Shown: one piece after another, positions 1 through 11,404 of the stretch | Numbering within the stretch: the first letter of the stretch is position 1 | How the letters are laid out: every line of letters begins with the position of its first letter | NCBI GenBank assembly: GCA_900320925.1 | Contig: ONUD01000069.1 | Coordinates: 1-30,367 of the forward strand | Source: an uncultured Eubacteriales bacterium | GTDB taxonomy: Bacteria > Bacillota > Clostridia > Oscillospirales > Acutalibacteraceae | DNA: 30,367 bases | Direction: 5' to 3' | The notes under the pieces: model-generated | What the model was told of the DNA's origin: nothing | Database searches by the model: none | What the model saw: the letters and a program-made list of their open reading frames with translations, nothing else | Made by a program: the position numbers and the translations under genes

Positions 1-1865
1 GTACACAAGGCAGGAATCCCCTCCAGTTCGATCATTCTGACTCCCTGCATGAACGGAAAGACATTTTTCATACGGACGCTTGTCATACAAGTGCTGATGT
101 AGTCCGAAAACTTGCCGTACAATTCTTCACGGTCATCAATAATCAGATACTTCACAGAATTGTCTATCAATTCCCGTTCAATGGCGGCGGCTTTTTCCAC
201 CAGTTCCTCATCAGCAGTATCAAACAGTGTTTCATCACTCACATTGCCGTACATAGCCTCCCTGCCAAGCATCAGGTTCTCGCTTTGAAGCAGTGATTTC
301 TCACATTCCGTGAAGTCATAGCCGCCCAGTGTAAACACTTCCACCGTTGTAGGAACATTTCTTTGTATTTTGTTAATGATATCAAAAAAATCAAATCCGT
401 TGATAAAAGAACAGATTCGATAATTGTCAGTGTCAATCCCCGTGGCATGAAACTCCTGCTCCAGCAGGGCAGTTTCTTCTTCATAGCGTGCCGTCATATA
501 GCTGCCAGATATTTTCAGCCGAGATTTTTCCATAAAATCCTTTTCAACAAAATAGCCGTTGACCAGTCCTGTCAGGATCAAAATACTGCAAATCGTATAG
601 ACGGCTTTGATAACACGTTTCTTTTGCACCCGTTTCAGGAAAAAGGCTGTCGGTACCATGCACAGCGGCAAAAAGACGAAATATCCCTTGAACATATACC
701 GTAAATTCCGAAAGACGGGCAGGCAGCTCAGAATCCGTGCAGTCGTTCCTCCCGTCATCATGGAAAAGAAAAAGAAAATTGCTGTCAATACACCAATCAA
801 AAACGCTCGCCTGTCACTCTGATGGAACAGTCCTTTCAGCATCCGTTTGGTTTCCTCATCACTTTGCTTCCTGACAGAGGGGTACCACTTGACGAACCAC
901 TGTATCCCTAAAAACAGCAGTCCGTAACCGCAAAAGGCAAATGCACCCGCATACAGGATAAGGGAAGCATCCCTTTCCTGCAAAGTAGCAGACGATGAAA
1001 ATACCGCCGTAAGCCCCCATTCCTCAAGCAGTTTTTTCGGCAGTAAACTCCCCAAAATCAGTTCCCGCCCTTGAAGGATATTATACGCAATATTATCTTT
1101 CACTTGGCTGTATGTTGCGGAACGGGCAGAAGACTGCATGAGCAGGACAAGCTGCGGCAGGCTCAAAAACACCCCTGTCAGGCAATTGGTCAACCCCTTG
1201 AGCAGATTCTTTTTTTTGCCGAAAATGCCCATGCACAGAACAATCATGGCATACAGGCAATACTGATAAATCGTATACTGCACATTGCCCAGAAGCAGAC
1301 TGAATGCCAGTATCACACCGCAGGCAATGTAGGATAATCGGGATTCTTTCAGCCTGAGAACGGTGTACAAAATCAGCGGAATGATGAAATAATTGTTGAA
1401 AATATAATACCAATAGCCAAACATATAGAATGCCGAACAGGAGGAATATGCCAACACCAACAACACGGATTTGTGTTCCGACAATCCCAGTTCCCTGCCG
1501 ACCAGAAATGCCATGCTATTGCCCAGTACCACCATGAGGATGATATAAAAGGAAATCGTTGCTCCCCAGCTTTTCCAAAATACAAAACGGTACACGATGT
1601 AAGACAGCAGCATCAGAGGATTGTTCAGACCGTAATACCCTTCATCGGCAATTTCCAGTCCCTTGCTCTGGAAAAAATCATAGTTAGGCATGATACCCGT
1701 GGAAAAGAACTGTTCGTATGCCTTGTCCATAATCGGCATCCACTGATTGCGGTTGTCATCGTACAAAAACATTTCGCTGCTGAATCCCGTGATACACAGC
1801 AGGAGCAGTATTGAAAAAACGGCAATGCCCAAAAGCCACAACCACTGTGTACGTCCGTTTTTCAC
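1..1865 (-). CDS. Polytopic membrane protein, GT-C-fold (YfhO-like) glycosyltransferase; 3'-truncated by the window edge
   Basis: Not in the ORF track because it has no stop inside the window. Translated by hand: open frame from GTG at 1865 (GTGA overlap with the upstream stop, GGAGGAGG RBS) to position 1, about 621 codons. Begins MKNGRTQWLWLLGIAVFSILLLCITGFSSEMFLYDDNRNQWMPIMDKAYEQFFSTGIMPNYDFFQSKG...GYYGLNNPLMLL. An acidic DD follows TM1, then many TM helices and a C-terminal soluble domain, as in YfhO/GT-C enzymes. Confidence 0.75.
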   Translation of the reverse strand, partial: MKNGRTQWLWLLGIAVFSILLLLCITGFSSEMFLYDDNRNQWMPIMDKAYEQFFSTGIMPNYDFFQSKGLEIADEGYYGLNNPLMLLSYIVYRFVFWKSWGATISFYIILMVVLGNSMAFLVGRELGLSEHKSVLLVLAYSSCSAFYMFGYWYYIFNNYFIIPLILYTVLRLKESRLSYIACGVILAFSLLLGNVQYTIYQYCLYAMIVLCMGIFGKKKNLLKGLTNCLTGVFLSLPQLVLLMQSSARSATYSQVKDNIAYNILQGRELILGSLLPKKLLEEWGLTAVFSSSATLQERDASLILYAGAFAFCGYGLLFLGIQWFVKWYPSVRKQSDEETKRMLKGLFHQSDRRAFLIGVLTAIFFFFSMMTGGTTARILSCLPVFRNLRYMFKGYFVFLPLCMVPTAFFLKRVQKKRVIKAVYTICSILILTGLVNGYFVEKDFMEKSRLKISGSYMTARYEEETALLEQEFHATGIDTDNYRICSFINGFDFFDIINKIQRNVPTTVEVFTLGGYDFTECEKSLLQSENLMLGREAMYGNVSDETLFDTADEELVEKAAAIERELIDNSVKYLIIDDREELYGKFSDYISTCMTSVRMKNVFPFMQGVRMIELEGIPALC

Positions 1866-2470
1866 TCCAAGAGCCTCCTCCATAAAGCGATATTCCTGTA
1901 TTTGCAGCAGACAGCATCAATTTGGATATGGTTTTCCTTGATAAAACGTGCATACGCAGTGATTTTTTCCTCCTGCCCCTGCAACTCGGGCGATACAATG
2001 CAAATACGATAGTCCATAGAATGCATTTCCTCTGCGGTTTGTCTGTCAAGGGGAAACTGCGTGAAACAGTCGACCCATACCCATTTTGCCCTGCCCTGCA
2101 TATGGCGGACAGTATCCATGCCCTCGTATTCCGAAAACCTGACAGCAATGTTATGTTCTCCCCTGTCCGAGAGCAGTTTCAGCATGGGAAATGTACTGTC
2201 AAGAAAAAAATAATCCTTTATCGGATACCGTTCCAGCAATTCTTTGATTTTCAGTTCGATTCGTTCACTCTTGACATTGATAATCATCGTGCCGCAGTGG
2301 TAGGCTTTCAGGTATTCTTCAAAGTCCTCGCCGTCTTTGAAAGGATCATGCTCCATGTAGAGCCTGCCGCCAAGGTCGTCCCTGACATCCAGTTCTACGC
2401 CGATTTCATCAGGCGTGGCAAGCATATCACTTTTTTTGTTTACTCTATGAGAAATGTATTCAATCATCAT
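1862..2470 (-). CDS. PLC-like/GDPD-family phosphodiesterase (short TIM barrel)
   Basis: Motifs SHRVN, GVELDVRD, HDPF and IINVK match the GDPD-type H-R / E-x-D / H-D / N-x-K pattern. ATGA overlap with the GT2 stop. Confidence 0.7.
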   Translation of the reverse strand: MMIEYISHRVNKKSDMLATPDEIGVELDVRDDLGGRLYMEHDPFKDGEDFEEYLKAYHCGTMIINVKSERIELKIKELLERYPIKDYFFLDSTFPMLKLLSDRGEHNIAVRFSEYEGMDTVRHMQGRAKWVWVDCFTQFPLDRQTAEEMHSMDYRICIVSPELQGQEEKITAYARFIKENHIQIDAVCCKYRNIALWRRLLE

Positions 2471-3165
2471 TTAATCCCTGCCTTTTTCAGTTTTTTAGAG
2501 AAGTCCAGCGTTCTTTTAATAAATTTCATTTTGGAACGGAAGCCCGTATTCCAATGGGACTGTCCGTGGATCCTTTCGGGAAACAGGACATCAAATCGTA
2601 TGATTTCCAGATTCTTCACGTTTGCCATGGACAGGGCATACAAGTCCAGTGCGAAATCATAGGGCGGTTCTTGCCATTCCTCAAAGAAGCTTCTCGGAAA
2701 AATATTCGGCTGTGCATTGATGTCATAGAGCTTCTGGTGGAGCAGGAGTGTTTCATAGACGCCCATGCCAAAGGTGAAAAAACGGTCAGAAAGCGGACGG
2801 TTTTTGCGTCTGCCCTTGATATAGAGGTTCGTCTGCTGTTTTTCACAGAGAATCTCAAAGCCTTTCAGCACATCTTTCGGGTCGGTCTGCATATCCGCAT
2901 GCGTCCAGCCGATATAGTCACTTTTGGCACTTTTCAGCCCTTGCAGGATTCCGTAACCGTAGCCCTGATTTTTCTCCACCGTCACCACCCTTGCGAATGG
3001 GTACTGCGGTACTAATTCGTCCATGACGGCACGGGAATTGTCGGTAGAGCCGTTGTTGACCAGCACCACCTCTACATTCGGTTTCATGCACGCACCAAAC
3101 CGTTCCAGAATCAGCGGAATATTCTCCGCTTCATTGTAGCATGGGATAATAATGGAAAGTGTCAC
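2467..3165 (-). CDS. GT2 glycosyltransferase, DPM1/GtrB-like polyprenyl-phosphate glycosyltransferase without C-terminal TM helices
   Basis: IIIPCYNEAENI, VNNGSTD, NQGYG, HADMQTDP and a C-terminal ERIHGQSHW; 232 aa; GTG start with AAGGA RBS; adjacent to gtrA. Confidence 0.85.
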   Translation of the reverse strand: MTLSIIIPCYNEAENIPLILERFGACMKPNVEVVLVNNGSTDNSRAVMDELVPQYPFARVVTVEKNQGYGYGILQGLKSAKSDYIGWTHADMQTDPKDVLKGFEILCEKQQTNLYIKGRRKNRPLSDRFFTFGMGVYETLLLHQKLYDINAQPNIFPRSFFEEWQEPPYDFALDLYALSMANVKNLEIIRFDVLFPERIHGQSHWNTGFRSKMKFIKRTLDFSKKLKKAGIK

Positions 3166-3218: not shown

Positions 3219-3611
3219 CTACTGCTTTGCTTTTCTGAAAACAAAGAATTTCTGCCCGAAGAAGTTCAGGACAGTACTCACACCGGTTGCACACAAAAAG
3301 CCAAGAAGCTGTATATTGATGAAGTACAGCACCGCAGAATTGACAGCGGTATTGATGAGAGCCGTGCAGGCATACAGGATGGCATACTTGATGATTTCCG
3401 TAAAAGAAAATCGTTTGGCTTCAAATGTCCATAATTTATTGATGATAAATCCGACAATGGAACCGCAGATGAAAGAAATCGCTTTTGCCACTGCCAGATC
3501 CATGCCGAGGAACTGCAGGAGCCAGTACATCCCTGCATCAGTCAGCACGGCACTGCCGCCCCCGACAAGAAATTTCAGTATCTCTTTGATGTTAAAGTCC
3601 GATCGTTTCAA
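3219..3611 (-). CDS. GtrA-family flippase-like protein (4 TM)
   Basis: ILKFLVGGGSAVLTD...ISFICGSIVGFIINKLWTF...VLNFFGQKFFVF is the classic GtrA pattern. Likely TTG start at 3611 after AGGGGA (the ORF track extends to 3650); overlaps the HAD 3' end. Confidence 0.9.
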   Translation of the reverse strand: MKRSDFNIKEILKFLVGGGSAVLTDAGMYWLLQFLGMDLAVAKAISFICGSIVGFIINKLWTFEAKRFSFTEIIKYAILYACTALINTAVNSAVLYFINIQLLGFLCATGVSTVLNFFGQKFFVFRKAKQ

Positions 3612-4275
3612 AATATCCCCTGATTTCTCTGTAATTTGAACAGCACACACAGTGGTCGGCCGTTTGATTGGAAAGGTAAATCGCTTTCATGCCTGCACGA
3701 GAAGCTCCAACAATATCTCGCTGATAGTCGTCACCAATGTAAACACACTCTGCGGGCAGGACACCCAATTTTTGGAGTGTCATCTGATACATGACAGCAG
3801 ACGGTTTTTCTGCCCCCGCCTCTTCACTGGACACCATGCAATCAATTTTGTGTTCAATACCGAGCCGCAGAATTTTCCGGAACTGGATATGAGCCGTCAT
3901 GTCGGTACAAATGGCGGTGCGGATATTTTTTTGCTTGAGAGAATCCAGCAATGCTCCTGCACCATCGTACAGTTCCATTTTTTCAAGGAAGTGTGTCCAG
4001 TAAGCATCATACATCGGCAGGGCATGACTAAACGGATGGATGTCCAGCAGTTCGGCACATCGCTGACAATACAGGATACGATTATGCCGTGCCGCACAGT
4101 CATAGGGAAGATGGTGTTTGATGTCTTCTCTCGCCTGTGCAAAAGCCTGTGCAAAGCGACTTGCCTCAATTCCCAAAGAACATACATACTCTTTCAGTTT
4201 TTCATAACCGTATTGATGGCACGGGTCATAAGGGTACAGGGTGTTGTCAAGGTCAAATATCACAGCTTTGAGCAT
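3592..4275 (-). CDS. HAD-superfamily (IA) phosphatase
   Basis: Motif I DLDNT, motif II ICTD, motif III EKP and motif IV GDDYQRD are all intact; the start directly abuts the upstream TGA. Confidence 0.9.
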   Translation of the reverse strand: MLKAVIFDLDNTLYPYDPCHQYGYEKLKEYVCSLGIEASRFAQAFAQAREDIKHHLPYDCAARHNRILYCQRCAELLDIHPFSHALPMYDAYWTHFLEKMELYDGAGALLDSLKQKNIRTAICTDMTAHIQFRKILRLGIEHKIDCMVSSEEAGAEKPSAVMYQMTLQKLGVLPAECVYIGDDYQRDIVGASRAGMKAIYLSNQTADHCVCCSNYREIRGYFETIGL

Positions 4276-6342
4276 TCAATTTCCACCTTCCGTAATTTTA
4301 TGGATCACCATCAGGAGAATGATTTGCAGGATACGGTTATGCACACTGCCGCAGTCCGAGAAATCTCCGTACAACTCCTCAAAATCCGTAATGAGATTTT
4401 CGGCAATATGTCGGAAAGGAATGGATTGTTGTGTATTGGTGGTAGAGCCGTCAACAATAATCGTCTGCATATCGGGGTCACTGCAAAAATCAAAATCCGT
4501 CTTGATACCGTACTGTTCCAGAATGGTCAGGAACGGTTCAATGTTGATGGCAGAGCTTAAAGTGATTTTCATGCTGATCTGTTCTTCATGGTCAGCCTCA
4601 AAATCATCGGTCAGTCCGCTGTCATAGTACTCGATAATGAGATTGGCGTAGTCTTTCTGGGGCAGGATATATTTGACAAAATCTCCTCGTCTTTGTTCGA
4701 TTTGTCGGCGGATACCGTCCATCGAATAGCCCCGCTTGCCAATATCCCGCCGGCACTTCCAGAATACCCGCAGTCTGTCATCGGTATGGAGGAAGATTTT
4801 TAAATCGAGATTTTTCCGCATTTGCGGCAGATACAGAGAATGCAGACCGGAAATGACAATAAACCGTTCGGGTTTGATAGTATGGCTGGGCGTAAAGGTA
4901 CCCGTATTATGGTCATAGTCCACACGCTGGACATTTTCGCCGTTTCTCAGCGTGGCAATATCATGTGCCTGCCGATAGAGGAAATTGGCTTTAGGATTGA
5001 GGTGGGTATACTTTTCCCAGTGTTTTTCCCCACGCTCCCATTTGTGGTCGCCGTCACCTTCAATCAGGAGAATATTTTTCTGTCCGAGTGTGGCTGTGAG
5101 AATGTCATTCAAAGAGGATTTGCCTGTACCGCTGTCACCGGAAATTCCAATGGTAAAAGGAATCTTCCTGCGTTTGTACAGGGCATTGCTGCTGATACCG
5201 TACTGGTAGATGGCGGCAATCACAAACAGCATAGCGGCAGACATGACCGTAAACACAAGATTGACAACCGTGGCATTGCCGATTTTCAGGAAATCCAGGG
5301 AGTATCCCATAAAGTAAATATCCACATAGTTGGCACGGTGGCAGAAAATGAAGAACAGCAGGTACATGGCATTCATCACATAATACAGTGCCAGCTTGCT
5401 CTTTTTATGCTTCTGCCCGACAAAGATTGCCGATGTGAACGGCACAATCCACACAAACCACCCCGGCATGGGGGAAACGAATATCAGAAAGACGGCAAAT
5501 AAAATGCCGCAGAAGCTGAATGTCAGATCCCGTCCGATTCTTGTCACGGTAAAGATGTGGATATAGATAGCCGCTACCGTGAATACGGCCAGATACAGCT
5601 TTACATCGCCAAAGGACAGGTAGACGTTCATGGCAGAGTTCTGCACCTTGTTCATCAGCACCGTATAGAAAAAGGCTTCTCCCATGAAAGGAGCAATAAT
5701 CGCCGTGGAGAGAGCCAGAAACAGCATGACCAGCAAAATGGTGCGAACCGACTTTTTTCTTCGGAAACAGTAGTAAAACAGCAGCGGTACCACGGCAAGC
5801 ATACTTTGTTTGCTCATGACGGAGAGCGTCAGGAACACCACAAAGCGAATATCAGCATATTTTTGCTGCCCGAAGAGGTAGTACAGTGATACGGTCAGCA
5901 ATCCGACAGGAATGATGTCAAGCTGCCCATGCATATACACGGCATACAGAATAACAGGCGAGCTGTAATATACGTAAGTCAACAGTTTTTTTTGCTGTGG
6001 GAACATTTTCACCAGAAACAACAGTGTCACTCCGTCAAACACCAGCAAAGGCAGTTTAAATAGGACGTTTTGTAAAAAAATACTCCCGAATGACAGGTAT
6101 TTTGACAGTACCCCTCCTGCACTCATGATGAACAGCATCACAGGAGGATACGGGAAGGCATCCGTGATTCCTCTCTCGTAAAACAAATTGTAGGGGTTAA
6201 AATTATCGTTGGTAAATTCCCTGATAAACGGCATGAACAATTCATTCTGGTAATCAGAGGAAAACAGTCCCAATAAAACGATCTTCACCACTGTCAGTGC
6301 AGCGATAAAAATCAGTATTGATCGATTTTTTTTCATATCCAT
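4276..6342 (-). CDS. Fusion: N-terminal GT-C-type (GT87/PIG-M-like) polytopic glycosyltransferase + C-terminal phosphoribulokinase/uridine-kinase family domain
   Basis: The N-terminal ~390 aa are hydrophobic, with SSDY, PYPP, FKLPLLVFD, HGQLDIIP and SVMSKQ motifs. Walker A GDSGTGKS lies at residues 402-409 (nt 5116-5139), followed by THLNPKAN, YDHNTG, GLHSLY, FWKCRRDIGKRG and YILPQKDYA, which parallel the plant/cyanobacterial PRK motifs. Confidence 0.8.
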   Translation of the reverse strand: MDMKKNRSILIFIAALTVVKIVLLGLFSSDYQNELFMPFIREFTNDNFNPYNLFYERGITDAFPYPPVMLFIMSAGGVLSKYLSFGSIFLQNVLFKLPLLVFDGVTLLFLVKMFPQQKKLLTYVYYSSPVILYAVYMHGQLDIIPVGLLTVSLYYLFGQQKYADIRFVVFLTLSVMSKQSMLAVVPLLFYYCFRRKKSVRTILLVMLFLALSTAIIAPFMGEAFFYTVLMNKVQNSAMNVYLSFGDVKLYLAVFTVAAIYIHIFTVTRIGRDLTFSFCGILFAVFLIFVSPMPGWFVWIVPFTSAIFVGQKHKKSKLALYYVMNAMYLLFFIFCHRANYVDIYFMGYSLDFLKIGNATVVNLVFTVMSAAMLFVIAAIYQYGISSNALYKRRKIPFTIGISGDSGTGKSSLNDILTATLGQKNILLIEGDGDHKWERGEKHWEKYTHLNPKANFLYRQAHDIATLRNGENVQRVDYDHNTGTFTPSHTIKPERFIVISGLHSLYLPQMRKNLDLKIFLHTDDRLRVFWKCRRDIGKRGYSMDGIRRQIEQRRGDFVKYILPQKDYANLIIEYYDSGLTDDFEADHEEQISMKITLSSAINIEPFLTILEQYGIKTDFDFCSDPDMQTIIVDGSTTNTQQSIPFRHIAENLITDFEELYGDFSDCGSVHNRILQIILLMVIHKITEGGN

Positions 6343-7918: not shown

Positions 7919-8911
7919 TTATTTCATTTGTTTTCTGTATTTTTCGGCATCCCAATTGGTCAGAAAGGACTGTTCCCTGCCGGAGATGGGAAGGATTTCC
8001 CTGCTGCCGGCAGACAGGCTGACTTTGGCACTGAATGACAGGACACTTTCTATATCGACAGCTTTCTTGATGTCGGGTGCAAGGATATAAACTTCCCCTC
8101 CCGCCAATACAACGCTTGGCAGAGGATTCGGCAATTCTATACTATTTGTAATATCCGGAATAGTTTCACCGCCGTATACAATGCAGTCCGGACAGAAATC
8201 ATACTGCCACATCCTGCCCTTTTCCAAAGCCTGACAAATATATTTGTTTTCGGAATGATAGACAATTCCCTGAAAATCAGGGTGCTGCTGCCGGATTCCT
8301 TTATAAATGCAAGAGGTCATTTTGTCAGCCTGTTCCGAAATGCCGAGAGAACGGCTGATTTTGTCAAGCACCGCTTGTGTTTTGTCAAGGACATAGACCG
8401 CACTGTCACCGCTGACAATCATGCCGTGGTTCTGCAAAAAGATTATTTCAGGCGGCTCAGACCTTTCTTTATACGCATTGTATAATTCAATTCCCAGCTG
8501 TAAACCCGGAGTATGATATCCAATCAGGAGTGCCTGAGGGAAGAGTGCCTGCAATTCGTCCATGCCGCCTTTTGTGGAAAGGAGGACATTGGCGGCGACG
8601 GGGTGTGTATGCAGGGTATAGGTTCCTGTAAAGGAGTGCAGGAAGGTTTCAATTGACGGTCTTGCACCGCTGACTAATGCTTTTTGCAGAATATCATTTT
8701 CAGAGCATCCTGTCTGAAGCAGTTCTGTAATGATACGATAATTGACAACAGACATCCCGCTGTTTTCCGTCACCTCGGCAAGCCTGACCCCTGATGATTT
8801 GATATACATGAGGGTGTCGGAAATTTTCACAGAGGTATTGCCGCCCGCTGCCTGGATCCAGTCCGCTCTCATACCCGCAAATACCGACAAATAGGCAAAA
8901 TCTTTTAACAT
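7919..8911 (-). CDS. Class II aldolase/adducin-family metalloenzyme (RhaD-bifunctional N-terminal type)
   Basis: AGGNTSVK, IKSSG, RPSIETFLH, LHTHP and LQNHG provide the Zn-binding His triad and the catalytic Glu. Start 8911 is preferred (GGTGA RBS); 8923 is the alternative. Confidence 0.85.
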   Translation of the reverse strand: MLKDFAYLSVFAGMRADWIQAAGGNTSVKISDTLMYIKSSGVRLAEVTENSGMSVVNYRIITELLQTGCSENDILQKALVSGARPSIETFLHSFTGTYTLHTHPVAANVLLSTKGGMDELQALFPQALLIGYHTPGLQLGIELYNAYKERSEPPEIIFLQNHGMIVSGDSAVYVLDKTQAVLDKISRSLGISEQADKMTSCIYKGIRQQHPDFQGIVYHSENKYICQALEKGRMWQYDFCPDCIVYGGETIPDITNSIELPNPLPSVVLAGGEVYILAPDIKKAVDIESVLSFSAKVSLSAGSREILPISGREQSFLTNWDAEKYRKQMK

Positions 8912-8944
8912 CTTCATCACCATTCTGTATAAAATTCATTTTTT

Positions 8945-8973
8945 ATCATACCATATCTCTTCCCAAAAATCAA
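8945..8973 (-). promoter_or_regulatory. sigma-A promoter for the glycosylation operon
   Basis: Minus strand TTGATT-17 nt-TATGAT with an extended TG. Confidence 0.65.
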
Positions 8974-9000: not shown

Positions 9001-9030
9001 AAAAAAACTGCCACCTCAAAGAGATGGCAG
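9001..9030 (-). terminator. Intrinsic terminator after trpS
   Basis: Minus strand CTGCCATCTC-TTT-GAGGTGGCAG stem (one G.U) followed by T7, 6 nt after the trpS stop. Confidence 0.8.
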
Positions 9031-9036
9031 GAAATC

Positions 9037-10041
9037 TTATTTGGCAAGGAAACCGATTTTTTTCATCGCCTTGTCAAGGGTACGTTGGGAGAGGTGCAGG
9101 GCAAAGTCTGCCCCCTTGCGGTACTGCTCGACAAGGGAATCTTTATGGCGGATATAGTCGTTAAAGCGTTCTTGAATGGGGCGAAGCTCCTCGATGACCG
9201 CTTCGGCAACGGCGGTTTTAAAATCCCCGTAGCCCTTGCCCTCAAACTCCACGGCAATCTCCTCAGCGGTCTTGCCCGTCACGGCACTCATAATGCCAAT
9301 GAGGTTGTTAATGCCGTCCTTGCCCTCACCGACACGCACCACGGCTTCGGAGTCAGTGACAGCTCTCTTGAATTTCCTCATGATGACATCGGGGGAATCC
9401 AGTACTGCCACCCATGCATTGACGTTTTCATCGGACTTGGACATTTTTTTAGTGGGATCCTGCAGGGACATGACTCTTGCCCCGACCTGTGAAATATACG
9501 GATCAGGCACGGTAAAGACATTGCCGTAAATGCCGTTGAAACGTTCGGCAATATTGCGGGAGAGTTCCAAGTGCTGTTTCTGGTCAGCCCCCACGGGAAC
9601 CATGTCTGCCTGATACAACAGAATATCTGCCGCCATGAGGGACGGATAGGCAAACAAGCCGGCATTCACATTGTCAGCGTGTTTCAGGGACTTGTCCTTA
9701 AACTGCGTCATGCGGGAGAGTTCCCCGAACTGGGTATAGCAGTTCAGAATCCATGCCAGTTCCGCATGGGTATGGACATGGCTCTGGATAAAGAACGGAC
9801 TTTTTGCCGTATCAATGCCGCAGGCAAGAAGCAGGGCATAGGCATTCAGGATATTCTGACGGAATTTCTGAGGCTCCTGCCTGACGGTGATGGCATGGAG
9901 GTCAGCCACGGCAAAAATGCAGTGGTAATCGTCCTGCAACTTGACCCAGTTCCGCAAAGCACCCAGATAATTGCCGAGTGTAATGGTGCCGCTGGGCTGG
10001 ATGGCACTGAAAATAACCTTTTTCTTTTCGGAAGCTTCCAT
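9037..10041 (-). CDS. trpS: Tryptophan--tRNA ligase
   Basis: FSAIQPSG-TLGNYLGAL (HIGH equivalent), YPSLMAADILLY, VPVGADQKQHLEL and KMSKS; TAATG overlap with the upstream gene. Confidence 0.97.
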   Translation of the reverse strand: MEASEKKKVIFSAIQPSGTITLGNYLGALRNWVKLQDDYHCIFAVADLHAITVRQEPQKFRQNILNAYALLLACGIDTAKSPFFIQSHVHTHAELAWILNCYTQFGELSRMTQFKDKSLKHADNVNAGLFAYPSLMAADILLYQADMVPVGADQKQHLELSRNIAERFNGIYGNVFTVPDPYISQVGARVMSLQDPTKKMSKSDENVNAWVAVLDSPDVIMRKFKRAVTDSEAVVRVGEGKDGINNLIGIMSAVTGKTAEEIAVEFEGKGYGDFKTAVAEAVIEELRPIQERFNDYIRHKDSLVEQYRKGADFALHLSQRTLDKAMKKIGFLAK

Positions 10042-11231
10042 TACAGTACCTCCTTGGCAAGTTCACCGAGAATTTTGATCCCCTTTTCCAACTGTTCATC
10101 GGTAGGAGTGGAGAAGTTGATACGGAAGGAACTGCACTGCTCGCTTTCATCGGTAAGGAACGCATTTCCGGGTACAACGCATACTTTGCGGAGAACTGCC
10201 TGCTTGCAGAAATCCACCATGTCCACACCCTCCGGCAGTTTACACCAGATAAACAGACCGCCTTCAATTTTCTGGTAGGTAATCTTATTGGGAACCAGGT
10301 AACGGTCTAACAGTTCCATGCAGAAATCAGCCTTTTTGCGGTAGATTTCACGCAGATTTTCCAGATGTGCCTTAAAGTCGTATTCCGTCATAAATTTGCA
10401 GGCAACCATCTGTGACCAGATGTTGGTATGCACGTCCTCGCCCTGCTTGCAAACAATCATTTTCTGGACAATTTCTTTCGGTGCAATGACATAGCCCACA
10501 CGCATACCCGGGGACAGGATTTTCGAGAAGGAACCGACATAAGCCACAATGCCGTCCTCGTCAAAGGACTTGATCGGCGGGATATTTTCGCCGCTGATCC
10601 GCAGTTCACCATAGGGGTTATCCTCTAAAATCATCACGCCGTACTGCTTGGCAAGTGCATAAATTTGTTTTCTTTTTGCAAGGCTGGTCGTCACGCCTGA
10701 GGGATTCTGGAAGTTGGCAATAATGTAGATAAAACGGACATTTTTTTCGGTTTGGAGAGCCTTTTCCAGTGCTTCTATATTCATGCCGTCATGCTCTAGC
10801 GGGATACCGCACAGGCGTGCATTGTACGAACGGAACGAATTGAGGGAACCGATAAAGCTTGGTGCTTCACAAATCACGGTATCTCCCTCATTGACCATGG
10901 ATTTTGTAATCAAATCCATGACCTGCTGTGCCCCTGATGTAATAATCAGGTCATCGAAATCTCTGCCCACATGGTAATGCTCTTTCATATAGTCACCGAC
11001 CGCTTTTCTCAGGGGAGCATATCCCTCTGTCACACTGTACTGGAGGGCAGCAATGGGGTTGTCCCGAAAGATATTGGCGGAGATTTCGGCAATTTCCTTG
11101 ACAGGGAATGCTTCCGGGGCAGGGTTGCCTGCGGAGAGGGATACCACCGTAGGATCGGCGGCATATTTAAAAATTTCTCTGATTGCAGAGGGTTTCAGGG
11201 TCTTTACCCTCTCAGAAAGGATATATTCCAT
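10041..11231 (-). CDS. PLP-dependent aminotransferase class I/II (2-aminoadipate/aromatic aminotransferase, LysN-like)
   Basis: PSAIREIFK, NFQNPSG, EDNPY, GSFSKILSPGMRVG (PLP lysine) and FRINFS. True start MEYILSER at 11231 (the track ORF to 11342 runs through the promoter). Confidence 0.9.
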   Translation of the reverse strand: MEYILSERVKTLKPSAIREIFKYAADPTVVSLSAGNPAPEAFPVKEIAEISANIFRDNPIAALQYSVTEGYAPLRKAVGDYMKEHYHVGRDFDDLIITSGAQQVMDLITKSMVNEGDTVICEAPSFIGSLNSFRSYNARLCGIPLEHDGMNIEALEKALQTEKNVRFIYIIANFQNPSGVTTSLAKRKQIYALAKQYGVMILEDNPYGELRISGENIPPIKSFDEDGIVAYVGSFSKILSPGMRVGYVIAPKEIVQKMIVCKQGEDVHTNIWSQMVACKFMTEYDFKAHLENLREIYRKKADFCMELLDRYLVPNKITYQKIEGGLFIWCKLPEGVDMVDFCKQAVLRKVCVVPGNAFLTDESEQCSSFRINFSTPTDEQLEKGIKILGELAKEVL

Positions 11232-11265
11232 CAAAAACAACTTCTTTCTCTTTAAGATACTTCCC

Positions 11266-11294
11266 ATTTTATCACATCTTTCCCCATCTTGCAA
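11266..11294 (-). promoter_or_regulatory. sigma-A promoter for aminotransferase-trpS
   Basis: TTGCAA-17 nt-TAAAAT with an extended TG, 34 nt upstream of the ATG at 11231. Confidence 0.7.
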
Positions 11295-11404
11295 GAACTT
11301 TATCTTTCTTATGGGAACCGCATAAAACAATCCATAAGCCAATCTGAAAATGGCACAAAGGGATACGTTTGCCCGCTGTTTGACATTGCAGGAAAGTTAC
11401 TGTC

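Follow-up and report, generated by a model that had tools for sequence, protein, structure and literature searches.

We analysed a 30,367-nucleotide stretch of DNA from an uncultured Eubacteriales bacterium (GenBank assembly GCA_900320925.1, contig ONUD01000069.1, positions 1 to 30,367; hereafter the window), in which a single gene joins a polytopic membrane domain with the fold of GT-C glycosyltransferases to a complete kinase of the phosphoribulokinase (PRK) type. PRK, which by definition uses ATP to turn ribulose 5-phosphate into the ribulose 1,5-bisphosphate that feeds RuBisCO, is regarded as a signature enzyme of the Calvin cycle. The gene belongs to a conserved cassette that also encodes a class II aldolase-like protein, a double nucleotidyltransferase, a HAD phosphatase, a GtrA-like protein, a GT2 glycosyltransferase and a GDPD/PI-PLC-like protein. 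We propose, with slightly better than even confidence, that the PRK-like enzyme is a pentulose-phosphate kinase that starts nucleotide-sugar synthesis for Gtr-type extracytoplasmic glycosylation of a surface glycan. Here a PRK-type kinase that keeps all its catalytic residues forms an obligate part of a surface-glycan cassette. Direct observation establishes the two folds, the conserved residues with which the kinase would catalyse, and the fact that fusion and cassette alike are conserved; RuBisCO was not found in six carrier genomes.

A search for the RuBisCO large subunit (PF00016) gave no match in the window's genome (82% complete) or in five further carriers of the fusion, including a single-chromosome Butyricicoccus metagenome-assembled genome (MAG) and genomes of isolates. 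An earlier note on this DNA, made from its letters alone, had noted the lack of a RuBisCO gene in the window, had asked for the genome to be checked for rbcL, and had assigned the kinase to sugar-donor synthesis. The genome check extended the first of these observations, and the assignment to a glycan-donor context, away from RuBisCO, is upheld by the conserved cassette of nucleotidyltransferase, HAD, GT2, GtrA and GT-C.

The kinase domain is PRK-like

The earlier note had described one 688-aa frame joining a polytopic domain to a kinase, and the minus-strand open frame at 4276-6342 bears this out; the public gene call is 686 aa long and starts two codons downstream. The kinase motifs that it quoted (GDSGTGKS, THLNPKAN, YDHNTG, GLHSLY, WKCRRDIGKRG and YILPQK) were each found in the translation, and their likeness to PRK is genuine, as they align without gaps to GDSGCGKS, TALDPRAN, YNHETG, GLHPLY, WKIQRDMAERG and YIEPQR of the Synechococcus enzyme. 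PF00485 matched residues 398-572 with 120.8 bits (E 8.5e-35), far above the Pfam gathering cut-off of 22 bits, and also matched all 32 aligned homologues; residues 575-688 gave no Pfam match at E up to 10. Identity to the Synechococcus PRK 6hzk was about 40% over 181 residues (E 8.6e-35). The top-ranked NCBIfam family was the plant/cyanobacterial PRK model NF005655, with 187.6 bits for the fusion kinase and 172-184 bits for its relatives, while a PRK from the RuBisCO (cbb) operon of an Allomeiothermus plasmid reached 403.6 bits. The uridine kinase models TIGR00235 and NF004018 gave 73.6 and 83.7 bits, short of their cut-offs of 220 and 180.

An AlphaFold model of the fusion protein, built from 32 homologues (mean predicted local distance difference test, pLDDT, 83.8; predicted template modelling score, pTM, 0.76), was compared with all representative chains of the Protein Data Bank (PDB). 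Residues 393-688 aligned with whole PRKs, namely 9qko (Z 23.5) and the Methanospirillum enzyme 5b3f (Z 22.9), over 269 residues each, with weaker matches to the Chlamydomonas (Z 20.2) and Rhodobacter (Z 17.3) enzymes, whereas a solved uridine kinase aligned over 186 residues only (Z 15.4). The full PRK fold of about 300 residues is thus present, including a C-terminal extension that is absent from uridine kinases.

The residues required for catalysis are in place. The P-loop spans G402-K408, and the gapless 6hzk alignment equates D430 and H478 with the catalytic dyad Asp57 and His105 of CrPRK. In the site that holds the 5-phosphate of ribulose 5-phosphate (Ru5P), R437 corresponds to Arg64, Y476 to Tyr103 and H478 again to His105, and K440 replaces Arg67; the roles of these PRK residues are taken from published work (PMC9978339; 10.1101/422709). 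D430, H433, R437, Y476, H478, R532, D533 and R537 are invariant among 38 sequences of 26-44% identity, and D430, H478, R437 and Y476 are invariant in the alignment of close homologues as well. The redox cysteines of plant-type PRK are absent, with T406 and E428 at those positions.

A maximum-likelihood tree was built from 17 fused kinases, 14 other relatives, the cbb-operon PRK, 10 cyanobacterial-type PRKs (metagenome sequences picked by motif pattern), a type I PRK and 3 annotated uridine kinases (udk); a truncated homologue (L106) and a second PF00485 protein of the window's genome were left out. The udk sequences stood apart (support 100/100, branch length 2.5), the canonical PRKs formed their own clade (87/85), and the fused kinases grouped with a family of about 470 aa, viral kinases included, in another clade (85/77). 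The tree left the deep branching order of the PRK, udk and fused clades unresolved, and the Bradyrhizobium type I PRK, whose branch had a length of 5-6, was uninformative. Judged by sequence, the kinase family is sister to the Calvin-cycle PRKs and lies outside them. The clustering with uridine kinases that the earlier note had named as a ground for dismissing its reading was therefore not seen, and its description of the kinase as PRK-like rather than uridine-kinase-like is well founded: the model scores (187.6 against 83.7 bits), the whole PRK fold and the separate udk clade agree. Its further idea that a Calvin-cycle kinase had been repurposed is not supported as worded, given the separate sister clade, a score below the NF005655 curated cut-off of 236 bits and the deep node that the tree leaves unresolved.

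The second PF00485 protein of the genome is a distant member of the family (contig C137:641-1228, minus strand, locus L003; E 5.8e-15; 328-aa open frame) and scores only 9 bits on the profile of the cassette kinases.

The membrane domain has a GT-C fold

Residues 2-390 of the model aligned with GPI mannosyltransferase I (PIG-M) at Z 27.3 over 345 residues, with ALG3 at 27.1 and with ALG6 at 24.9; further matches were PIG-U (23.5), ArnT (19.6) and PimE of family GT87 (18.5). At the level of the predicted structure, these matches confirmed a GT-C superfamily fold. Sequence models placed the domain less closely. The N-terminal 395 residues had no Pfam match even at E 10, and the fusion protein did not reach the GT87 model PF09594 (gathering cut-off 25 bits), with no match at E 10. 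That model was passed by one of 32 close homologues and by two of three GtrA-fused relatives (P0251, 32.6 bits; P0202, 26.5 bits), which suggests a family at the edge of GT87. Of the earlier description as GT87/PIG-M-like, the PIG-M-like GT-C part therefore holds by fold, and the GT87 part holds only at the periphery of that family.

The topology proposed earlier, with the kinase in the cytoplasm, also agrees with our reading: about 12 membrane helices were counted, and the N-terminus and a KRRK linker are positively charged. The charge distribution and the helices of the model suggest that both ends of the 12-helix domain are cytoplasmic; the kinase begins about 10 residues past the last helix, behind the KRRK stretch.

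Seven membrane-domain residues are invariant across the family (F63, P64, P129, D142, K178, W295 and W298), and D103, H138 and Q140 are nearly so. By the same topology reading, D142, K178, D103, H138 and Q140 would lie on the outer side. In GT-C enzymes the first extracytoplasmic loop (JM1) carries an acidic catalytic residue, D58 in PimE and an Asp in ALG6, and PimE uses its Asp base together with a phosphate-binding Lys (10.1101/2024.09.17.613550). The invariant pair D142/K178 resembles the latter arrangement, and D142 and K178, with the near-invariant D103, may stand in for the first-loop catalytic Asp. D30 belongs to the first outer loop and reaches at least 90% conservation in close homologues; as a candidate for the GT-C catalytic base it was rejected, because the position is variable in the wider alignment.

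The fusion and its cassette are conserved

A search with the full protein returned more than 1000 homologues of 690-700 aa at 42-48% identity, with full-length examples from Clostridium butyricum, C. botulinum, Paenibacillus, many gut MAGs and one deltaproteobacterial MAG. The fusion is encoded by 213 species-representative genomes, mostly of Lachnospiraceae, Oscillospiraceae and Clostridium, but also of Selenomonadaceae, Treponema and others. The earlier note had allowed for a fusion peculiar to this assembly; this case did not hold, and an assembly artefact is excluded because the fusion is conserved in more than 200 species. It had also raised the question of whether homologues are fused or split. 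A search with the membrane domain alone gave 745 representative clusters, and nearly all of the 150 listed were 670-710 aa long; among these 150, to judge by length, the membrane domain is hardly ever found apart from the kinase.

The distribution is very patchy: of 200 further genomes from the same order, one carries the fusion, and of ten from the same family, none does. Gene order and strand are nonetheless kept over 80 other loci, with the nucleotidyltransferase present in 79, the GT2 in 77, the HAD and the GDPD-like protein in 73 each and the aldolase-like protein in 68. By comparison, the trpS and aminotransferase genes that neighbour the cassette in the window accompany it in none of the 80 other loci. 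We read the cassette as a horizontally mobile, self-contained unit. GtrA is present in 30 of 81 loci; where it is lacking, the GT2 stays a soluble protein of about 233 aa.

A large polytopic protein directly flanks the cassette in 70 of the 80 loci, and none was seen nearby in the other 10. Those sampled either matched PMT_2 or YfhO or matched no family, and homologues of the window's own second polytopic protein occur in only 7 of the 80 loci. This protein is the part of the system that varies, and in this it resembles the serotype-specific GtrC of Gtr systems.

The surroundings of individual copies are those of glycan loci. The cassette of Clostridium butyricum lies within a rhamnose-type polysaccharide locus, and that of Azospirillum brasilense plasmid p5 adjoins genes for an O-antigen-type ABC transporter, gmd and GT1 genes. 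A complete and compact eight-gene cassette is carried beside IS26 by a 33-kb IncR plasmid of an E. coli from human stool (NZ_CP145712.1, locus L293, 6022-14984), comprising nucleotidyltransferase, GtrA, GT2, GDPD-like protein, fusion, HAD, aldolase-like protein and a hypothetical protein of 586 aa. This copy offers a tractable experimental system.

Parts of the cassette are also tied together by natural fusions, which occur as GT-C, PRK and HAD (P0041), as GT-C, PRK and AldolaseII (P0222), as GtrA, GT-C and PRK (P0251, P0212 and P0202) and as PRK and AldolaseII (P0343). A literature search returned nothing on a GT-C/PRK fusion or on the cassette, only background papers.

Giant-virus contigs carry a soluble version of the module

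The related PRK-like family of about 470 aa has members in 141 contigs of IMG/VR, and many of these bear the names of giant-virus MAGs. Viral counts refer to the 80 viral loci kept (L213-L292); the family is also represented at L004, L005, L211 and L212. Among the 80, the aldolase-like protein was encoded in 73 and the twin nucleotidyltransferase in 58, and a mini-HAD and a mini-GDPD were found in 61 each; the mini-HAD has 97 aa with a DIDET motif, and the mini-GDPD has 155 aa with SHRGN...VEVDLR...GHD. The GT2 query matched one of the 80 loci and the GtrA query none, and the fusion query matched through its kinase part only, with no GT-C. The neighbours of the viral module include eukaryote-type Leloir glycosyltransferases (GT10, GT11, GT25, Fringe and GT61). 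Since the soluble set stands beside Leloir glycosyltransferases and without a GT-C, the kinase appears to serve nucleotide-sugar synthesis. On this sequence comparison, the five soluble enzymes would act as one unit for making a sugar donor in the cytoplasm, and the bacterial cassette would add the lipid-carrier and GT-C steps.

The viral kinases of 474 aa begin with a domain of about 200 aa (residues 1-215 of P0378, L211:8001-8645) with no Pfam match, and BLAST found no similarity of these 200 residues to the HAD or the GDPD-like protein. An exact look-up of one stand-alone kinase, P0321, gave no match.

Organization of the cassette in the window

In the window, the fusion sits in a translationally coupled minus-strand operon (Table 1).

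Table 1. Features of the cassette and its upstream boundary in the window (all on the minus strand).
Feature	Coordinates	Strand	Basis
GT-C membrane domain + PRK-like kinase, bifunctional protein	4276..6342	minus	688-aa open frame, including stop codon
GT-C-fold polytopic membrane domain, residues 1-390	5173..6342	minus	Fold match, AlphaFold helices, charge, conservation
Complete PRK-type kinase, residues 393-688	4279..5166	minus	PF00485, NF005655, 6hzk alignment, fold, tree
Class II aldolase/epimerase-family protein, 334 aa, first gene of operon	7919..8923	minus	PF00596, E 2.2e-14
Tandem double nucleotidyltransferase, 524 aa	6343..7917	minus	NTP_transf_3; GlmU-/RmlA-like matches to both halves
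HAD phosphatase, 227 aa	3592..4275	minus	NF053830 (haloarchaeal RuBP 5-phosphatase) as best family
GtrA/DPMS-type four-helix membrane protein	3219..3650	minus	PF04138, E 7.6e-21, residues 26-138
Soluble GT2 catalytic domain, 232 aa, DPMS/ArnC/GtrB type	2467..3165	minus	PF00535
GDPD/PI-PLC-like protein, 202 aa, motifs SHR...ELDVR...EHD	1862..2470	minus	Cluster names PI-PLC/GDPD; names of NCBI homologues
Second large polytopic protein of the window, 627 aa or more, cut by window end	3..1883	minus	Atlas features YfhO, GT-C_AftD
Promoter-like site TTGATT-17-TATGAT with TG extension, upstream of first cassette gene	8945..8973	minus	Consensus match only
Intrinsic terminator after trpS, 10-bp stem and T run	9008..9030	minus	Sequence

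The aldolase-like protein retains an intact metal motif, PSIE...LHTHP...NHG (His-x-His...His plus Glu), in a domain of the RhaD/YuxG type, and has an additional C-terminal region of about 130 aa; its family matches include the model of AraD (L-ribulose-5-phosphate 4-epimerase). The double nucleotidyltransferase contains an internal repeat and is 37% identical to the giant-virus version; in Clostridium butyricum it is split into two genes of 259 and 268 aa. The HAD protein scored 189.5 bits on NF053830, the family of the haloarchaeal ribulose 1,5-bisphosphate (RuBP) 5-phosphatase, and 111 bits on the next family. NF053830 likewise ranked first for the HAD proteins of C. butyricum and Azospirillum and for the fused HAD of P0041, and homologues scored 166-182 bits.

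The closest solved relatives of the GT2, by type a polyprenyl-phosphate glycosyltransferase, are the Pyrococcus Dol-P-Man synthase 5mlz (E 2.8e-10) and ArnC, and the GtrA protein is a likely partner or flippase for it by family assignment. As listed, from its GTG, the GtrA frame runs into the HAD gene, so that the true GtrA start probably lies further downstream. The 202-aa GDPD-like and 627-aa proteins had no Pfam match at E up to 10.

The promoter-like site lies about 35 nt downstream of the strong terminator that directly follows trpS and bounds the transcription unit on its upstream side, and the cassette therefore appears as its own transcription unit behind a housekeeping gene. Further upstream, a 433-aa frame with an aminotransferase fold (10041-11342, minus strand) best matched MocR/PdxR-type regulators (260.9 bits, short of the cut-off). 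Only its aminotransferase part is covered by that match, and no N-terminal helix-turn-helix was seen in the listed frame; its start codon may be mis-set, or the protein may be a plain aminotransferase.

A proposed pathway and its alternatives

In the pathway that we favour, the fusion is a bifunctional inner-membrane protein; the substrate, the chemistry that follows the kinase at each step, the acceptor and the reason for the fusion are what we infer. The committed step would be taken by the cytoplasmic C-terminal kinase, which would use ATP to phosphorylate C1 of a ketopentose 5-phosphate, most likely Ru5P or one of its epimers, which the class II aldolase/epimerase-like enzyme would provide, and so yield a pentulose 1,5-bisphosphate. 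The adjacent HAD would then remove the 5-phosphate to leave a pentulose 1-phosphate; the haloarchaeal RuBP 5-phosphatase is strictly specific for RuBP and produces ribulose 1-phosphate (Ru1P), which cyclises (PMC9700705). The aldolase-family enzyme would set or alter the stereochemistry and, together with the GDPD/PI-PLC-like protein and the twin nucleotidyltransferase, would convert this pentulose 1-phosphate to a sugar activated by a nucleotide, which the DPMS-like GT2, with GtrA, would place on polyprenyl phosphate; the lipid-linked sugar would then be flipped across the membrane. Transfer to the acceptor on the outer face could be carried out by the fused N-terminal GT-C, by the variable second GT-C, or by both in turn. 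Fusion of the first and last enzymes would fix their ratio at 1:1 and place donor synthesis at the membrane.

Several observations weigh against this pathway. A ketose C1 phosphate is not anomeric, and simple kinase-phosphatase-nucleotidyltransferase logic is therefore insufficient: extra, hypothetical chemistry must be assumed. The co-conserved PI-PLC/GDPD-like enzyme and second nucleotidyltransferase domain would fit a phosphate shift to C2 via a cyclic phosphate. Both the kinase, at 187.6 bits, and the HAD, at 189.5 bits on NF053830 (cut-off 330), fall below the curated thresholds of their best families, and the substrates of both may differ from those of the reference enzymes. A GtrA-like gene is missing within 10 kb in 51 of the 81 loci, mainly in Lachnospiraceae (L039-L084). 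The second GT-C-like protein, present in most loci, could be the real transferase, and position 30, where a first-loop catalytic Asp would be expected, varies in the wider family (D in 11, G in 6, E in 5 and H in 5 of 38 sequences). For every member of the cassette, the favoured pathway draws on sequence and predicted structure.

The role of the fused membrane domain is the point at which the proposal is most readily modified. The earlier note held that the kinase is tethered to the enzyme that consumes the final donor, and this part of its reading was not sustained, in view of the variable second polytopic protein that flanks 70 of 80 loci and of the unconserved first-loop Asp. The fused domain may instead be non-catalytic, acting as a scaffold that binds the lipid carrier, as a flippase or as a membrane dock for the GT2, while the second GT-C performs the transfer as GtrC does and the kinase still serves donor synthesis; we hold this to be a genuine, though minority, possibility. 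PIG-U is a non-catalytic lipid-binding subunit with a GT-C fold, and GtrC is the serotype-specific component of Gtr systems. Consistent with such a role, PIG-U is among the top fold matches of the domain, the flanking polytopic protein (frame 3-1883 in the window) is variable in sequence and matches PMT_2 or YfhO in the samples, and the GT2 remains soluble in the 51 loci that lack GtrA. On the other hand, the catalytic enzymes PIG-M, ALG3 and ALG6 are closer in fold than PIG-U, the invariant D142/K178 and the near-invariant D103, H138 and Q140 are read as outer-side and PimE-like, and 10 of the 80 loci show no second polytopic protein nearby. A different kinase substrate appears rather unlikely, be it xylulose 5-phosphate, L-ribulose 5-phosphate from an AraD-like enzyme or a longer ketose phosphate, in which case the sugar would not be simply ribulose-derived. 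It would suit the distinct clade and sub-cut-off score of the kinase, the inclusion of AraD in the class II aldolase family and among the family matches of the aldolase-like protein, and the kinase-aldolase fusions P0343 and P0222, which suggest consecutive steps. Chlorovirus glycans contain xylulofuranose of unknown origin (PMC9614988), and the module is common in giant-virus contigs. Nevertheless, the residues that hold the 5-phosphate in PRK and the catalytic dyad are all kept and the HAD is most similar to a strictly RuBP-specific enzyme, although the evidence at hand does not separate C3/C4 epimers.

Two further explanations would give the kinase another role, and we consider both very improbable. 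Homologues are mostly named 'uridine kinase' in NCBI and JGI annotation and PF00485 spans both enzyme types, as would be expected of a uridine/cytidine kinase whose nucleoside salvage feeds the nucleotidyltransferase. The uridine kinase models nevertheless reach only 74-84 bits against cut-offs of 180-220, and the solved enzymes align over 186 residues at Z 15.4 as against 269 residues at Z 23 for PRKs; the separate udk clade points the same way, and the co-conserved, sometimes fused HAD resembles RuBP phosphatase rather than a nucleotidase. The kinase, HAD and aldolase could alternatively form a catabolic, non-carboxylating pentose-bisphosphate shunt, from RuBP through Ru1P to dihydroxyacetone phosphate and glycolaldehyde, with the glycosylation genes as incidental neighbours. 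The similarity of the HAD to the haloarchaeal RuBP phosphatase and the presence of a class II aldolase in the same operon recall such a route (PMC9700705). Yet making RuBP from Ru5P costs ATP and gains nothing beyond the pentose phosphate pathway, and in 68-79 of 80 loci the three genes keep a fixed order relative to those for the nucleotidyltransferase, the GT2 and the GDPD-like protein, with fusions to GT-C and GtrA. The same set lies amid glycosyltransferases in giant viruses, and the aldolase-like protein is of the RhaD/YuxG type with an extra C-terminal region, not of the haloarchaeal FucA type.

Within the donor-synthesis pathway that we prefer, a more specific version is conceivable, although we rate it as doubtful: the cassette would be the missing activation route of 2-ketopentofuranoses (xylulose or ribulose) as glycosyl donors. 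The PRK-like kinase would phosphorylate C1, the HAD would strip the 5-phosphate and so let the sugar close to a furanose, and one nucleotidyltransferase domain would form a nucleoside diphosphate (NDP)-1-ketose. The PI-PLC/GDPD-like enzyme would next shift the phosphate to the anomeric C2 via a 1,2-cyclic phosphate, and the second nucleotidyltransferase domain would form a true NDP-ketofuranose donor. If this route is correct, the giant-virus module would explain the xylulofuranose of chlorovirus capsid glycans, and the route would account for the pentuloses of some bacterial O-antigens and capsules.

Significance and comparison with known systems

Cassette carriers comprise more than 200 bacterial species, mostly of gut and rumen, as well as E. 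coli and Azospirillum plasmids, and the soluble module extends to more than 140 IMG/VR contigs. Such PRK homologues are likely mis-annotated as carbon-fixation or 'uridine kinase' genes in genome and virome surveys; one virome survey lists a large-phage PRK among 'carbon fixation' auxiliary genes (PMC10732071). If the proposed biochemistry is right, the cassette would represent a new nucleotide-sugar pathway from an intermediate of the pentose phosphate pathway and may explain how ketopentoses enter glycans. A mobile and very patchy cassette is typical of the surface-antigen variation that is relevant to phage/host interactions in the gut. To our knowledge, a single polypeptide that joins the first cytoplasmic step of a pathway to an extracytoplasmic one would be a rare case.

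Compared with type II PRKs of plants and cyanobacteria (6hzk, Chlamydomonas 6h7g and 5b3f), the fusion kinase shares the fold, the C-terminal sheet extension, the P-loop, the Asp/His dyad and the Arg/Tyr/His site. It differs in its separate clade, its sub-cut-off score and its lack of the redox cysteine pair; no RuBisCO partner was found in the genomes searched, and a linker of about 10 residues tethers the kinase to a 12-helix membrane domain. That domain matches the folds of PIG-M/Gpi14 (GT50), ALG3 (GT58), ALG6 (GT57) and PimE (GT87) across nearly its whole length (Z 18-27, 327-358 residues); the class formed by PIG-M, ALG3, ALG6 and PimE comprises GT-Cs that use polyprenyl-phosphate sugars. 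Unlike these enzymes, it shows only 9-13% identity to them, has no Pfam match and no conserved first-loop Asp, and carries the invariant D142/K178.

As a system, the cassette is closest in layout to Gtr-type glycosylation, as in GtrA/GtrB/GtrC of Shigella and Salmonella, CsbB/GtcA/YfhO of Firmicutes, ArnC/ArnT and the pentofuranose systems of Citrobacter youngae (PMC11127046). A DPMS/ArnC-type GT2, GtrA and GT-C are co-encoded in these systems, the same three components are found together in the window's operon, and in both cases the module is an accessory, patchily distributed part of glycan loci. In contrast to Gtr-type systems, the cassette brings its own five-enzyme donor module rather than relying on a housekeeping nucleotide sugar or phosphoribosyl pyrophosphate (PRPP), its first enzyme is covalently fused to the GT-C, there are usually two GT-C-like proteins, and GtrA is mostly absent.

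The haloarchaeal pentose bisphosphate pathway (PMC9700705) shares with the cassette a HAD for which the RuBP 5-phosphatase is the best family and a class II aldolase-family protein. There, however, RuBP comes from ribose 1,5-bisphosphate (R15P) isomerase, whereas in the cassette it would come from the PRK-like kinase; the cassette HAD also scores below the family cut-off, the aldolase is of another subtype, and the context of nucleotidyltransferase, GT2 and GT-C is anabolic.

The logic of the proposed pathway is that of NDP-heptose synthesis, in which GmhA is followed by the kinase HldE/HddA, the HAD phosphatase GmhB and the nucleotidyltransferase HldC/HddC, with the kinase phosphorylating the anomeric position. 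Phosphorylation at a second position, removal of the original phosphate by a HAD and addition of a nucleotide would be common to both. In the cassette, unlike in NDP-heptose synthesis, a PRK-type kinase would phosphorylate the non-anomeric C1 of a ketose, and this difference may be what lies behind the conservation of both a GDPD-like enzyme and an additional nucleotidyltransferase domain beside the kinase.

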